Below, one piece after another: positions 24,978 through 53,009 of a stretch of 60,706 nt of DNA; within the stretch, counting starts at the first letter, position 1; every line of letters starts with the position of its first letter. This stretch comes from Dehalococcoidales bacterium (GTDB lineage: Bacteria; Chloroflexota; Dehalococcoidia; Dehalococcoidales; RBG-16-60-22), in the NCBI GenBank assembly GCA_034434915.1, contig DAOTYE010000021.1, forward strand, positions 1-60,706, read 5' to 3'. The translations under genes were made by a program, and so were the position numbers. Under the pieces are notes generated by a model. The model was not told the origin of the DNA. It made no database searches and was given only the letters and a program-made list of their open reading frames with translations.

Positions 24978-25045
24978 TTACCACTCAGGTTACCCTTATC
25001 TTCTGCCTCTGTTACCACTCAGGTTACCCTTATCTTCTGCCTCTG
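24978..25045. repeat. Perfect 34-bp tandem duplication
   Basis: TTACCACTCAGGTTACCCTTATCTTCTGCCTCTG at 24978-25011 and 25012-25045, with no spacer. Confidence 0.97.
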
Positions 25046-25320
25046 TCAATAATCGCCCGCAAGACATTCTTACCGTCCCTGAGCTGGACGCCTTATTCAT
25101 TGGTCGCCATGCCCTGTCATTAAACCTTGGTATTCCCGGGCAGGGTGATAATCCTGAAATTCAGCATGCCGTAGATAAGGCGATTAAAGAGGGCAAATCT
25201 GCCGGCAGGGCGGTGGGAGGCGGGGCAATCAATGCGGGAGACCCTGCCAGCGTCCGGGAGTTCATCAAGCAGGGAGCTCAGTTCTTCAGCCTGACCGCCA
25301 CCTCACCGTTAAGAATTTAA
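25046..25320 (+). pseudogene. 5'-truncated remnant of an HpcH/HpaI aldolase
   Basis: VNN.PQDILTVPELDALFIG...LSLNLGIPGQ..NPEIQ.A...AIK.GK.AG resembles the HpcH C-terminal half; no start or N-terminal half present. Confidence 0.75.
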
Positions 25321-37588: not shown

Positions 37589-37698
37589 CCGCGTAACACC
37601 TGCGTAACGCCTGCGCATCTCCTCAATTACGCACCTTATCTTTTGCGCATTTGCTCTGTTCCGCAAAAAAGTATTGACGTAGTTACGCAGTTGCGCTA
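37589..37698. repeat. Octamer array 1 (8-bp register) upstream of parA
   Basis: From 37611 in register: CTGCGCAT CTCCTCAA TTACGCAC CTTATCTT TTGCGCAT TTGCTCTG TTCCGCAA AAAAGTAT TGACGTAG TTACGCAG TTGCGCTA; plus inverted copies at 37589 and 37600. Confidence 0.9.
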
Positions 37699-37702
37699 TA
37701 AT
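37674..37702 (+). promoter_or_regulatory. Sigma70 promoter of parA
   Basis: TTGACG (37674-79), 17-bp spacer, TATAAT (37697-702). Confidence 0.9.
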
Positions 37703-37710
37703 ACCAGGAG

Positions 37711-38508
37711 ATGCCAGTTATCTGCATTGCCAATCAGAAAGGCGGCGTGGGCAAGACCACCACTGCTGCCGCCCTCGCCCACGGTTTGAGCGAACACGGC
37801 AAAAGAGTCCTGCTTATTGACTGGGACCCGCAGGCAAGCCTTACCATCTCGCTTGGCTTCAATCCAGAACAGCTCCGGAAGACGGTCTACAACGCACTGG
37901 TGTCAGTGGTCAACGGCAATGACCCTCAATCCATACTTGATGTCCTCTCAGCAACAGCCAATCCCTCAGTTGACCTGATACCGGCAAACGTTGAACTTTC
38001 CCAAGCTCAGCTTGACCTGGTGAACGTACCCCAGCGGGAGCAGGTGCTGAAAAAGATAATCCAGCCGCTGCGCAGGCGGTACGCTTTTATCCTCATAGAC
38101 TGCCTGCCCAGCCTGGGTCTGCTCACCATCAATGCCCTTGTTGCCGCAGATAAAGTGCTTATCCCGCTCCAGGCTGATTTCCTCGCCATGAAAGGGCTCG
38201 CCATGCTCCTCACCACAATCATCCGTGTTAAAGAGCGCCTTAACCCCAGATTGGAAATCGCCGGCGTGGTGTTCACCATGACCAATCCCAGAACGCTCCA
38301 CTGCAAAGAGGTCATAGAAGTTACCAAGAAAGCCTTCAGCAACCGCATCCACGTTTTTGACACTGTCATCCCCACCAGCGTCCGCTTTAAAGAAGCCCCC
38401 GCCGCCGGGCAGTCCATCCTGTCCTACGCTCCTGATTCTGAGGGCGCCCAGGCATACCGCCTGCTGACGAAAGAGGTGATGGAAAATGAAACGGGTAAGC
38501 ATTACTGA
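37711..38508 (+). CDS. parA: ParA/Soj family ATPase without an N-terminal HTH
   Basis: Deviant Walker A KGGVGKTT, IDWDPQ.SLT, DC.PSLG.LT.NAL.AAD. Confidence 0.95.
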   Translation: MPVICIANQKGGVGKTTTAAALAHGLSEHGKRVLLIDWDPQASLTISLGFNPEQLRKTVYNALVSVVNGNDPQSILDVLSATANPSVDLIPANVELSQAQLDLVNVPQREQVLKKIIQPLRRRYAFILIDCLPSLGLLTINALVAADKVLIPLQADFLAMKGLAMLLTTIIRVKERLNPRLEIAGVVFTMTNPRTLHCKEVIEVTKKAFSNRIHVFDTVIPTSVRFKEAPAAGQSILSYAPDSEGAQAYRLLTKEVMENETGKHY

Positions 38509-38851
38509 AGAAATGGCATACGGCTCCGCGCTGGACCGCCTCACCGGAGAAGACAAGCTTTTATCTCCACCGGCTCTGGCCAGGACAGCTCCGCCGCGCA
38601 AACCTAAAAAAGGACCGTCTATTGCGGAGACCAATCCTGCCACCATCAAACTTTCCGTGTTCCTGGGCAGAGAAGAGGACGCCTATCTTGAGAGCCTGGC
38701 TTCCACGGCTAAATTCAGCGGTGGTAAAAAGCTGAGCAAGACCAGGCTGATTGAAGCCATGGTGCGCGCCTTCCGCAAGAGTAAACTTGACGTGCGCGGC
38801 GTGAAAACGGATGAGGAGCTCTTCAAAAGAGTAATTGCGCAATTGCGGTAA
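38486..38851 (+). CDS. Small ParA-partner protein, predicted ribbon-helix-helix
   Basis: Overlaps the parA 3' end by 23 bp. Pro/Lys-rich N-tail, then strand TIKLSVFL, helix REEDAYLESLA, helix SKTRLIEAMVRAF. No ParB/Srx motif. Confidence 0.7.
   Translation: MKRVSITEEMAYGSALDRLTGEDKLLSPPALARTAPPRKPKKGPSIAETNPATIKLSVFLGREEDAYLESLASTAKFSGGKKLSKTRLIEAMVRAFRKSKLDVRGVKTDEELFKRVIAQLR
38827..38850. repeat. Octamer array 2 at the stop of the ParA partner
   Basis: AAGAGTAA TTGCGCAA TTGCGGTA. Confidence 0.65.
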
Positions 38852-44179: not shown

Positions 44180-44211
44180 CTCCGCAATTGCGCAAACAAG
44201 TATTTGCGGAA
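44180..44211. repeat. Octamer array 3
   Basis: CTCCGCAA TTGCGCAA ACAAGTAT TTGCGGAA. Confidence 0.75.
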
Positions 44212-45261: not shown

Positions 45262-45301
45262 TTACTCAATTGCGCAATTGCTCATCAGCGCATTTACGCT
45301 A
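45262..45301. repeat. Octamer array 4 (five tandem units) between convergent genes
   Basis: TTACTCAA TTGCGCAA TTGCTCAT CAGCGCAT TTACGCTA. Confidence 0.85.
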
Positions 45302-45321: not shown

Positions 45322-46059
45322 CTAAGCAGAACCCAGCTCGTCCAGCTGATACAGTATGAAGCTGACCGCCGCCAGCGCGGCTGTCTCCGCCCTGAGCACC
45401 CTCTTGCCGATGCTCACCGGGATGATGCCGTGAGACTCAGCCATTCTGACCTCTGAGGCAGGAAATCCTCCCTCAGGTCCTATGAAAACGGTGATTTTAT
45501 CGCAGTTGCGCAATTGCGCATTTGCGAGAGTAGATTTCAAGCTCCTGCTTTTTTCCTCTTCCCAGAGCAAAAGCGCGGGGCTTTCCGTTCCCCGGCACGC
45601 CTCCGCAAAACTCACCGCGGGATGAAGCACCGGCAGTCTTGCCCGCTCGGACTGCTCCGCCGCTTCCTGGATAATCTTGCGCCACCTCGCCACTTTCTGC
45701 TCTCCTGGCTTCCTCACCACACAGCGTTCCGAGATAAAAGGAACAAATGCACTTACCCCCAGTTCCACCCCCTTCTGAAGCACGAGCTCAAATTTCTCTG
45801 CCTTGAGCAGTGCCTGGCATAGCGTGATACTGATGCGGGGCTCGCTTTCACTCCGCTTTTTGCTGGCTATCACGCCCTGGGCTGAGTCTTTTCCCAGTTT
45901 GGTCAATTCAAGCTCATACTCCCAGCCGCTATTGTCCAGGACGATGATGTGGTCGCCCGTCTTGAGCCTCAGCACATGGCGAATCTGGTGCGTCTGTTCG
46001 TCAGAGAATGACACTTCGTTACCAGCCATCTGCTCTTGAGCGATGAAAAATCGGTGCAT
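45322..46059 (-). CDS. rsmE: 16S rRNA m3U1498 methyltransferase
   Basis: MHRFF, H.I..VLRL..GD, K..ELGV..F.P..SER, EAAEQS.R, IGPEGG, G.RVLRAETA. Confidence 0.96.
   Translation of the reverse strand: MHRFFIAQEQMAGNEVSFSDEQTHQIRHVLRLKTGDHIIVLDNSGWEYELELTKLGKDSAQGVIASKKRSESEPRISITLCQALLKAEKFELVLQKGVELGVSAFVPFISERCVVRKPGEQKVARWRKIIQEAAEQSERARLPVLHPAVSFAEACRGTESPALLLWEEEKSRSLKSTLANAQLRNCDKITVFIGPEGGFPASEVRMAESHGIIPVSIGKRVLRAETAALAAVSFILYQLDELGSA
45498..45529. repeat. Octamer array 5, inside the rsmE coding sequence
   Basis: TATCGCAG TTGCGCAA TTGCGCAT TTGCGAGA. Confidence 0.85.
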
Positions 46060-50093: not shown

Positions 50094-51068
50094 TTATTTC
50101 ATTGCGCTATTGCGCAAATACGCAGTTACGCTATTTTCAATTGCCTTCACTTCATCTAACGTGGTAGCGCCCTTCCCCTGCTCGGGCATCGCTTTGAAGA
50201 TGGCTACTGTCTGATAAACATCTTCTCCTGTCGCCAAAAAGACCTCATACATCAGGGGGAGATGCCGGGTATAGGTCATCTGGAAAGCGATGAAAGCGTT
50301 ATTAAGCTGGTCAAACTTTATCCGGGCGGCGCTTATGAAGGCGGCGCTCATTGCCTCAAGCAGTCTCTTCTTCTGTGTCAAAGTCTCAGCTTCTGAAATT
50401 GCCCCGCGGTGAAATGCCGAGTAGAGGCTGGTGAGCTCATCGTAGTAGCTCAGGAAGATATGGCTGGTCTTTACCTTTCTCTCCAGCTCGCCCTGCAAGT
50501 CTTTATAGACCAACGAATCCCGCCCGAACCTCTCCCCAACAAAGAGCATGGCGGCGGCATAGCCTATCACCTCTCCGGAAGATTCTTCTATCCCCAGCGG
50601 CAGGTCTATTTGCTCATGCCAGTCCTCATGGAAGATAATGAAAATGAACCGGTGTAGCGGCTCGCGGAGGAGCAGTTTAGTTACCGGCGTCTTCACTCCG
50701 GCGATGGACGGAATCTCATAGAAAAAAATATCGTAGCGCTCAGGGTCTAAACCGGCATCTCCGGGCTTACCCTGACCGTTCTTGAGCGCCGGGTCGTCCA
50801 GAGAATAGGGAAGCTCGGTCGCCGACGTGTAGAAATAGTAGGGATACGATTCCAAATCTCCGGCATATTCCTTGAAGTTATCCGTCTCAGTGAAGCCCAG
50901 CTTCAGCTCAAAGGCTTTTATTTCCTCTATCAGCGCCAGTCTTTGCTTGCTGGTGAGCTGGGGGTTGGAAACACAGCCGGTTAGAACCGGCACCAGAGCC
51001 ACCAGCACGGCGAGCAAAAGCAGACTTATTCTTAGCTTCAGGCTCTTATGTCGCTGAAACATCTCCAT
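50094..51068 (-). CDS. Putative lipoprotein zinc metallopeptidase (aminopeptidase-like)
   Basis: Hydrophobic signal with LTGC lipobox; IFHEDWH (HExxH) followed by EE.SG. Confidence 0.65.
   Translation of the reverse strand: MEMFQRHKSLKLRISLLLLAVLVALVPVLTGCVSNPQLTSKQRLALIEEIKAFELKLGFTETDNFKEYAGDLESYPYYFYTSATELPYSLDDPALKNGQGKPGDAGLDPERYDIFFYEIPSIAGVKTPVTKLLLREPLHRFIFIIFHEDWHEQIDLPLGIEESSGEVIGYAAAMLFVGERFGRDSLVYKDLQGELERKVKTSHIFLSYYDELTSLYSAFHRGAISEAETLTQKKRLLEAMSAAFISAARIKFDQLNNAFIAFQMTYTRHLPLMYEVFLATGEDVYQTVAIFKAMPEQGKGATTLDEVKAIENSVTAYLRNSAMK
50102..50133. repeat. Octamer array 6, inside the 3' end of the peptidase gene
   Basis: TTGCGCTA TTGCGCAA ATACGCAG TTACGCTA. Confidence 0.88.
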
Positions 51069-52340: not shown

Positions 52341-53009
52341 ATGAAAGTCATCATCATTATCGTGGCAATTATCGCCCTTGCCGGTGCCGGGGTTGGCGGC
52401 TATCTCATCGCCAACAAGCTAAACGCGCCCTCACCACCCCAGCCGGCGCCTACTACTCCTGTGCCGGCGCCATCACCTGCTCCTGCGCCCGCACCATCAC
52501 CTGCCCCCACAGCTCAGAACTTTGAGCAGAAGATTGAAAGCCTGCAGAACGTTATCTCCAGAGTCCAGACCAGCGGCAAGAGCGAGGAGGTTACCCTCAC
52601 CTTCACTGAAGCTGAGGTGAACGAGCAGGCAGGATTGATGCTCGCCCAGATGCCCCCTGATTCCCAGTTCAAAGTCACCAGCGTCAAGATAGACCTCAAG
52701 CCGAACAATCTTATAGCCGCCGAGCTCGGCGCGGTAGCTGCCGGCATCAGCCTGCCCGTCAAGGTAAACGTGCAGGTCAGCGTCATCAGCGGGAAGCCTG
52801 AACTGAAAATCACCGGCATCAACTTCGGCTTCATTCCTCTGCCCCAGTCAGTGAAAGACCAGGTCTCCGCCACGCTTGCCAAAAGCCTTGACGATATGCT
52901 CATGCAGATGATGCAGACGGGAGCCGGCGGCGGCATTGCTCCTGAGTTCAAGACCATTACCATCCGGGAAAATGATATGACCATGACCGTCCTGATAAAC
53001 CCCGCCTGA
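52341..53009 (+). CDS. Hypothetical membrane-anchored protein with Pro/Ala linker and an elongated beta/alpha domain (possibly LmeA/DUF2140-like)
   Basis: N-terminal TM helix, PAPSPAPA x2, LTFTE.EVN, V.IDL....I, ITIREN.MT. Confidence 0.6.
   Translation: MKVIIIIVAIIALAGAGVGGYLIANKLNAPSPPQPAPTTPVPAPSPAPAPAPSPAPTAQNFEQKIESLQNVISRVQTSGKSEEVTLTFTEAEVNEQAGLMLAQMPPDSQFKVTSVKIDLKPNNLIAAELGAVAAGISLPVKVNVQVSVISGKPELKITGINFGFIPLPQSVKDQVSATLAKSLDDMLMQMMQTGAGGGIAPEFKTITIRENDMTMTVLINPA

Follow-up and report, generated by a model that had tools for sequence, protein, structure and literature searches.

The gene rsmE lies on the minus strand at positions 45322..46059 of a 60,706-nt stretch of DNA from an uncultured Dehalococcoidales bacterium (hereafter the window, meaning the whole stretch analysed; all coordinates are positions in it, and the array field on contig C21 is numbered alike) and encodes an intact, 245-residue member of the 16S rRNA m3U1498 methyltransferase family (SPOUT). 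Inside this gene, at 45498-45529 as read on the plus strand, codons 178-188 are overlaid by a 32-bp array of four consecutive units of a TTRCGCAN octamer, TATCGCAG TTGCGCAA TTGCGCAT TTGCGAGA, which differ from TTGCGCAA at 3, 0, 1 and 2 positions, respectively, and stand in strict 8-bp register. On the coding strand the same DNA reads CTC GCA AAT GCG CAA TTG CGC AAC TGC GAT AAA and specifies residues L178-K188, LANAQLRNCDK, which are followed by ITVF and IGPEGG; the array ends five residues before IGPEGG. Sequence and translation agree with the original prediction, which had placed four in-register octamers just ahead of the IGPEGG motif. This array, A5, is one of six (A1-A6), all in strict 8-bp register, that occupy 12.5 kb beside an operon composed of parA and a gene for a 121-residue protein that we refer to as the partner.

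Scans of the window and of the genome (a 1.62-Mb assembly of 80 contigs, 54% GC and 93% complete) indicate that A5 is far from an ordinary run of sequence. Counting as a double unit any 16-mer with up to 3 mismatches, the window holds 23 against 2.85 expected, a number reached in 0/100 shuffles; genome-wide there are 11, eight of which fall within C21:37683-50117, that is, in 12.5 kb of 1.62 Mb. Exact copies of TTGCGCAA are likewise about 32-fold denser in this 12.5-kb field (0.4 per kb) than elsewhere (0.012 per kb). A5 is the sole three-unit stretch with three or fewer mismatches in the 1.62 Mb, and only A5 and A6 extend to four units with six or fewer, making A5 the best consensus match in the whole genome. 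Across the 26 units from which the motif composition was derived, the position frequencies are T(.81) T(.92) G/A(.62) C(1.0) G(.85) C(.88) A(.73) N(.62), the cytosine at position 4 being invariant.

The original prediction held that the array dictates the peptide, and this part of it is borne out. A perfect array is free of stops in all six frames and always specifies the cyclic octapeptide LRNCAIAQ; the A5 translation (TLANAQLRNCDKI) agrees with this octapeptide at 7/13 positions and departs from the LQNPPFKxA consensus of RsmE orthologues. When random synonymous codings of the given peptide, drawn at local codon usage, were scored by their mismatches to four consensus units, about 3 in 100,000 did as well as the natural one, which has 6 mismatches where 5 is the least possible and 12.7 the average (P about 3e-5 for the given peptide). 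The peptide is therefore unable to explain the DNA match; because the test is conditioned on sites picked for their motif match, it is no proof of function. The central two units, which impose A-Q-L-R-N-C, match the consensus fully or almost fully, and the departures in the outer units coincide exactly with constraints on RsmE: with a consensus first unit, the invariant L178 (CTC) would become Cys (TGC), and with a consensus T at the opening of the second, the usual N180 (AAT) would become Ile (ATT).

The product of the host gene matches PF04452 (E=2.2e-49) and PF20260, corresponding to a PUA-like N-domain and a SPOUT domain, keeps the IGPEGG knot motif intact, and aligns end to end with 29 orthologues with the invariant residues retained. 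The gene is the only copy in the genome and is under purifying selection, with a ratio of nonsynonymous to synonymous polymorphism (pN/pS) of 0.25 against strain L043. In a confident structural model of RsmE (mean predicted local distance difference test score, pLDDT, 90.7), residues 178-188 form a helix-turn connector (helix 181-184) that precedes strand 188-193 and the IGPEGG knot loop. The site had been described as a variable loop, a description that does not survive this model or the alignment, since the connector is short and ordered as helix and turn, and F183, conserved in at least 90% of orthologues, is replaced here by Leu.

How A5 arose can be read from a comparison set of 33 other RsmE sequences, made up of the 29 orthologues (55-64% identity) and four family-internal sequences (36-37% identity). 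A search of a 5.8-billion-protein collection places the next closest RsmE proteins, beyond the species itself, at no more than 64% identity. At the A5 region the 29 orthologues read SLKxxLQNPPFKxAxxxSLFIGPEGG with no indel relative to the window; all 29 lack AQLR, and the octamer array is absent from all 33 sequences. Here LQNPPFK has become LANAQLR, again without an indel and with F183L among the changes. A5 is therefore a new feature at the level of species or genus, and point substitutions produced it. A three-residue insertion that we had considered is seen only against the 36-37%-identical proteins and disappears in the 55-64% orthologue alignment. The case of L053 is instructive: its synteny is like that of the window, with parA-partner-hppA and then rsmE 9 kb downstream, yet it carries only the array at the partner 3' end, and the DNA of its rsmE loop is unrelated to the motif. 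Because A5 is missing from the orthologues, including this syntenic one, we conclude that it is young, at the level of species or genus. Long residence on the replicon, which the original prediction had proposed for the rsmE site, is therefore contradicted for A5; it does hold for the operon and for the arrays at its promoter and at the partner 3' end, which are family-wide. The A5 peptide is likewise unique among the 33 RsmE proteins, so that it does not recur in rsmE of lineages lacking the locus.

Four genomes of the family carry a different RsmE lineage, the 36-37%-identical one, also without octamers, and the window RsmE is nearer (55-64%) to that of other Dehalococcoidales metagenome-assembled genomes (MAGs) than to these four. 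The gene is also patchy in the family: a PF04452 search was positive in 3/9 genomes tested, with a first-look filter that may overlook copies. These patterns suggest loss, replacement or transfer of rsmE in the family.

Comparison between strains, which rests on one divergent strain (L043/L044), adds little about constraint. Assemblies L036-L042 of the same species are identical at A5. In L043/L044, rsmE has diverged by 7.9% in nucleotides (90.6% amino-acid identity), and A5 and its peptide are kept, placing the array in two strains of one species; the sole change in it is T45514C, a synonymous CAA to CAG substitution at the weakly constrained unit position 1. This single synonymous change compares with about 1.5 expected, within a block of low divergence, a test without power. 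Divergence from L043 is 1.7% over 45322-45497 and about 10% over 45530-46059, and because A5 sits in the 1.7% block abutting the 10% block, its retention is uninformative on constraint. The step in divergence, which resembles a recombination breakpoint, lies inside rsmE within about 40 bp of A5. The other arrays are also kept in L043: A4 is unchanged at all 40 positions (0/40), and A1 has three changes, one of which moves a unit towards consensus. In the same strain, transposase genes (DDE_Tnp_1 and DDE_3, at L043 1214-2701 and 18480-19091) flank the region from parA to the aminopeptidase-like gene, and one of them truncates a tpx-like gene.

The remaining arrays show how A5 is situated with respect to the par operon. 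The parA gene (37711..38508, plus strand) encodes a 265-residue Walker-type, ParA/Soj-like ATPase that matches PF13614 (1.2e-58 over residues 2-183) as well as PF01656, has no N-terminal helix-turn-helix (HTH) domain, and matches the NCBIfam model ParA_partition only partially and below cut-off. The partner gene (38486..38851, plus strand, 121 residues) overlaps it by 23 nt. A1 (37611..37698) comprises 11 eight-bp slots over the parA promoter, a sigma-70-like element at 37674..37702 on the plus strand (TTGACG-17-TATAAT, 11/12 matches). Its last two units, TTACGCAG and TTGCGCTA, occupy the spacer between the -35 and -10 boxes (TTGACG, then TAG TTACGCAG TTGCGC, then TATAAT), and for this reason we regard A1 as a putative operator; such promoter overlap is typical of auto-regulated par operons. 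A2 (38827..38850) contains a core pair, TTGCGCAA TTGCGGTA (38835-38850), that is dual-coded with the last codons of the partner (..IAQLR and the stop), and this site is conserved across the family. A3 (44180..44211) is intergenic and reads CTCCGCAA TTGCGCAA, a spacer unit, and TTGCGGAA. A4 (45262..45301), with five units (TTACTCAA TTGCGCAA TTGCTCAT CAGCGCAT TTACGCTA), lies where an hbd-like gene and rsmE converge, within the 65 bp between their 3' ends; it is separated from A5 by 196 bp, with array starts 236 bp apart, and the two together place nine units around the rsmE 3' end. A6 (50102..50133; TTGCGCTA TTGCGCAA ATACGCAG TTACGCTA) overlaps the C-terminal codons, at the 3' end, of an aminopeptidase-like gene (PF10023) at 50094..51068 on the minus strand. 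Given that A5 lies inside coding sequence and A4 between convergent gene ends, these arrays are not promoter operators, and no promoter-like site was found near A5; the case made originally against a purely promoter-regulatory role is sustained on both counts.

Several smaller features accompany this layout. The parA start codon follows the -10 box by 8 nt, and an AGGAG abuts the ATG directly (37697-37713); the parA transcript probably begins with a very short leader or none at all. Just upstream of A1, at 37591-37615, is an 11-bp direct repeat, GCGTAACACCT GCGTAACGCCT GCG; since the unit variant TTACGC reads GCGTAA on the opposite strand, the repeat may represent inverted units at 11-bp spacing. 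In strain L043 a deletion has removed one copy of it. In the window the asymmetric TTACGC units all face the same way with respect to the operon (6/6), a uniformity that fails in genome G036. Neighbours of the parA system include mutS2, tpx and hppA. Elsewhere in the window there are a perfect 34-bp tandem duplication (two copies) at 24978-25046 and a 24-bp tandem repeat (two copies, 88% matches) at 52456-52504.

A6 offers a second view of dual coding, with a different history. Residues 312-322 of 324 in the aminopeptidase-like protein read SVTAYLRNSAM, and the 3' end of the gene encodes SVTAYLRNSAMK followed by the stop. The codon choice is the minimum-mismatch coding of this peptide (6 mismatches against a mean of 13.7; P about 1e-6). 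The original prediction had A6 dictating SVTAYLRNSA, which stands for the codons and the flanking residues and fails for the YLRN core. Orthologous C-termini carry related sequence, namely ..VTDYLRNTLLK.. in G021, ..VTDYLSSKL at the stop in G022, ..VVRYLRDTL.. in G024 and ..VTDYLQSAL.. in G010, and the core is therefore ancestral; it is present even in G021, a genome in which no partner was detected, so that for A6, and only for its core, the same peptide does occur in a lineage lacking the locus. The YLRN codons are TAT CTC CGT AAC in G021 and TAT TTG CGC AAT in the window. A6 thus made use of a peptide that was already suited to it, fixing its codons and altering its flanks (D to A, T to S, L to A). 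Of the broader proposal that dual coding argues for selection on the DNA itself, determination at the DNA level stands for A5 and, at the codon level only, for A6; the comparison between strains has no power to show constraint.

The operon with which the arrays associate is a family trait. In the first of two partner surveys, the protein was found once per genome in 31/36 of the genera sampled from this family and, outside it, in 1/24 families of the order. The second, a scan of species-representative genomes, found the pair of parA and partner conserved in 128 species; all of the partner-bearing species are uncultured Dehalococcoidales or Dehalococcoidia MAGs, closed chromosomes included. The system is chromosomal rather than plasmid-borne, as seen on contig C2 of G025 (1.56 Mb) and on the closed MAG chromosomes CP070842 (2.3 Mb) and CP070693 (1.1 Mb). 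Among 80 loci oriented on the partner gene, most carry the core GCGCARNTGCG at two fixed places, the parA promoter, which is about 815 bp upstream of where the partner gene starts, and the partner 3' end. The partner C-terminus AQLR is correspondingly nearly invariant in 21 genera and is lost in distant stand-alone homologues of the core.

The partner itself has the build of a ParA adaptor: translational coupling to parA, a conserved N-terminal peptide and a conserved core. The peptide, MKRxxITEELAYGxALDRL (invariant residues M1 K2 R3 T7 E8 A11 Y12 A15 L16 R18), leads through a variable Pro-rich linker into a core of the form IKLSVFL - helix - GGKKLSKT - helix - extra helix. Distant homologues, retrieved by a profile search over 1.8 billion representatives, share the core only, and the N-terminal peptide is absent from the stand-alone ones. 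The nearest of these, P0133, is not beside a parA, and for this reason the core domain alone implies no partition role. The distribution suggests that the partner is a DNA-binding core that gained a ParA-interacting tail. The partner has no match in Pfam, NCBIfam, PHROG or the PDB (the first three are empty also for 10 distant homologues), PDB profile searches returned only noise, including a designed protein, and Foldseek found no match with the AlphaFold2 monomer model, which has a pLDDT of 60, helices at 65-74, 85-98 and 109-120, and no strand. [quoted passage not shown] The core (residues about 54-120) also shows a weak, non-significant resemblance to the helix-GxSGxxL-helix of an AAA+ lid (E about 1.5).

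Beyond the two fixed sites, the array set is labile. Clusters lie on the parA contig in G025, G036 and G001, where they span 10-32 kb, and in G016 (3 kb) and G011 (5 kb), and the positions of the extra arrays differ between genomes. In G022, G039 and G045, in which no partner was detected, there are no clusters, only scattered 3-mismatch matches. All of the dispersed arrays inspected in three relatives (11/11) are intergenic, often between convergent 3' ends, although two have ambiguous gene starts; at L046 5859-5881 (G036:C3, about 33.86 kb), a double octamer fills nearly the whole of a 23-bp gap between convergent genes. In seven genomes the distance from the operon to dnaA is 22-30 kb, and dnaA sits inside the array field or next to it. 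That the arrays mark oriC, a possibility that we considered, is true of these seven and fails in two closed MAG chromosomes, where dnaA is 248 kb and, in CP070842, 768 kb from the operon and the arrays remain beside the operon. In G065, dnaA is on a different contig from the operon, and in the genome studied here it is on contig C49, which has no arrays.

A canonical ParB-parS system is absent. ParB_N (PF02195) has no match in this genome (93% complete), and the parS palindrome TGTTNCACGTGAAACA has no match in it with 0-1 mismatch and two unrelated ones with 2 mismatches. Among 61 genomes of the order, ParB_N occurs in 11, mostly in short ParB-like open reading frames elsewhere; it is missing from the other 50, including families that also lack the 121-residue partner.

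Taken together, we favour, at a probability of roughly 0.6, the reading that A5 is a young, extra four-unit loading array of a ParB-less chromosome-partition system, paired with A4 across the 196-bp gap. The most likely binder of the octamers would be the small protein encoded downstream of parA, whose operon is bracketed by two ancient arrays, one serving as a putative auto-operator of the parA promoter and the other lying over the partner's own stop codon; the remaining arrays are scattered within about 3-30 kb of it, as a set differing between genomes. By analogy with ParF-ParG/parH, delta-omega and SegAB, partner dimers may coat the arrays cooperatively, one per 8-bp unit, the conserved N-terminal peptide may stimulate nucleoid-bound ParA-ATP, and the chromosome region so decorated could then be segregated by a ParA gradient. 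A5, on this reading, arose in situ through point substitutions in a surface connector of RsmE that tolerates change. Binding by the partner, its cooperativity, centromere function and a selective benefit of A5 are all things that we infer from this arrangement. More tentatively, and at somewhat less than even odds, this previously undescribed orphan-adaptor ParA system might segregate the chromosomes of the whole uncultured family, in an order that largely lacks ParB, with a fast-evolving array centromere and a selection for new units strong enough to invade genes, rewriting NPPFK to NAQLR in RsmE and fixing the codons of two other gene ends.

Several points weigh against this reading. Its central step, binding of the arrays by the partner, is one that we infer, for a protein with no database match, a model of pLDDT 60, an empty Foldseek search and a DNA-binding fold that is putative. 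An intragenic array is atypical, given the 11/11 intergenic arrays of relatives, and A5 is confined to one species-level lineage, in which its conservation between strains (a 1.7% block beside 10%) is uninformative. The codon test rejects the idea that the peptide explains the DNA and says nothing on what the site does. Proximity to the origin is not universal (22-30 kb in seven genomes, 248 and 768 kb in two, another contig in G065). Finally, A5 could be a neutral by-product.

This last point is the alternative that we take most seriously, while considering it unlikely: A5 would be a real copy of the motif, produced by drift, biased mutation or short-patch conversion from neighbouring arrays (A4 being 196 bp off) in a loop tolerant of change, neutral or slightly deleterious and, whether bound or not, making no contribution to segregation. 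Its presence in one species-level lineage only, the intergenic placement of the other dispersed arrays examined in relatives, the quick turnover of the dispersed set between genomes and a between-strain comparison without power to show constraint are all what such an origin would lead one to expect. A5 is, however, the closest consensus match in the genome rather than a decayed copy, and its sequence is no copy of A4 or A2; several amino-acid replacements, one of them at the conserved F183, were also needed in the sole rsmE, a gene under purifying selection.

Distinctly less probable is an explanation in which another factor binds the arrays, or in which they serve another role (organisation of the origin domain, a roadblock to replication or transcription, attenuation of rsmE), the link to parA being regulatory only. 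The putative status of the partner's DNA-binding fold leaves room for such a factor, in seven relatives the array field either flanks dnaA or sits between it and parA, and proteins arrayed within the gene could hinder RNA polymerase as it transcribes rsmE. Yet the arrays of CP070842 follow the operon and not dnaA, genomes without a detected partner have no motif clusters, and the two universally conserved arrays bracket the operon, one of them over the stop codon of the partner itself. The near-palindromic units and the several arrays that fill short convergent 3'-end gaps might recall repetitive extragenic palindromic (REP) or miniature inverted-repeat transposable element (MITE)-like repeats, or RNA hairpins acting as terminators or stabilisers, with the rsmE copy an accidental insertion. 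We consider this very improbable: the motif is not genome-wide, with 8/11 pairs in 12.5 kb of 1.62 Mb, a strict 8-bp register built of degenerate units sets the arrays apart from REP elements, they are neither followed by a T-tract nor overlapped by any terminator-like site, and because rsmE has no indel relative to its orthologues, nothing was inserted in it. Coincidence, in which an RsmE peptide merely happens to have octamer-like coding, could appeal to the loosely similar A-x-x-L-x-N pattern of family-internal RsmE at this position, but is effectively refuted by the genome-wide scans and the codon test, given a DNA match of P about 3e-5 for the peptide, a peptide unique among 33 RsmE sequences, and the best array in 1.62 Mb lying 7 kb from parA inside the only array field.

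The system most resembles the type Ib partition modules of plasmids. In ParF-ParG of TP228, 4-bp boxes with 4-bp spacers give an 8-bp period, each box takes one RHH dimer, and operator and parH centromere alike are made of these boxes (PMC3130281); in delta-omega of pSM19035, at least four contiguous heptads are needed for ParA activation (PMC9499535). As in these systems, an HTH-less Walker ParA is followed immediately by a small partner with a flexible N-terminal tail and then a core (DNA-binding there, putatively so here), and short, degenerate tandem units, with a period of 8 bp in parH/OF, 7 bp in pSM19035 and 8 bp here, occur both at a promoter operator and at what is here a putative centromere. 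The four units of A5 compare with the about four or more contiguous ones that pSM19035 needs. Unlike the plasmid modules, the system described here is chromosomal and vertically inherited across a family, beside hppA and often about 25 kb from dnaA; its sites, instead of forming one block, are small arrays spread over 12-30 kb, a field whose make-up changes from genome to genome, with one array inside coding sequence; its unit is a GC-rich near-palindrome rather than ACTC plus an AT spacer; and its partner has no sequence similarity to ParG or omega, the RHH fold being putative.

A second likeness is to SegAB of archaea, in which a chromosomal ParA is paired with an RHH protein and the N-terminus of that protein stimulates the ATPase (PMC8682754). 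Both SegAB of Sulfolobus (PMC8682754, PMC12139799) and the present system pair a chromosomal ParA-type ATPase with a small, lineage-specific partner, have sites beside the operon and lack ParB. [quoted passage not shown] The present system differs in being bacterial and in having 8-bp-register arrays instead of the 23-bp imperfect palindromes of SegB. Profile searches of all PDB chains, which include SegB structures, returned no similarity of the partner to SegB, and on this comparison the resemblance appears to be functional only.

Centromere sites inside genes are known for ParB-parS, and the first Bacillus subtilis parS was reportedly found by Lin and Grossman in 1998 within spo0J itself. 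As in chromosomal ParABS, several sites are scattered here near the par operon, often near oriC (their role as a centromere being putative), and some overlap coding sequence, among them one in the 3' part of the gene that encodes the centromere-binding protein, here putatively the partner. Dual coding of such sites therefore has precedent. Unlike chromosomal ParABS, the present system lacks both a ParB_N protein and parS, has tandem 8-bp arrays in place of single 16-bp palindromes, and shows no evident CTP-dependent spreading protein.

Tandem-repeat centromeres are already known from type Ib plasmids; for chromosomes, the only documented pairing of ParA with a small non-ParB partner is, to our knowledge, the archaeal SegAB. 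A literature search turned up no account of a partition system in Dehalococcoidia. The novelty lies in combining three things: a ParA with an orphan partner and no ParB, carried on bacterial chromosomes across a family, a labile field of arrays in 8-bp register, and a young array that overwrites a conserved connector in a housekeeping enzyme. For experiment, A5 provides a compact, synthesisable test substrate, as a 32-mer against its synonymous recoding, and for annotators it illustrates that overlapping DNA signals can drive lineage-specific peptide changes in housekeeping proteins. If the reading is true, A5 is a natural experiment on dual coding, in which 32 bp serve both a DNA-binding register and the structure of an enzyme; the compromises are legible, with central units perfect and outer units yielding to the invariant Leu178 and to Asn180, and a protein sequence would have been shaped by centromere selection. 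If the arrays are the loading sites of the partner, a bacterial chromosome would be using a plasmid-style, type Ib-like partition module instead of ParB-parS.

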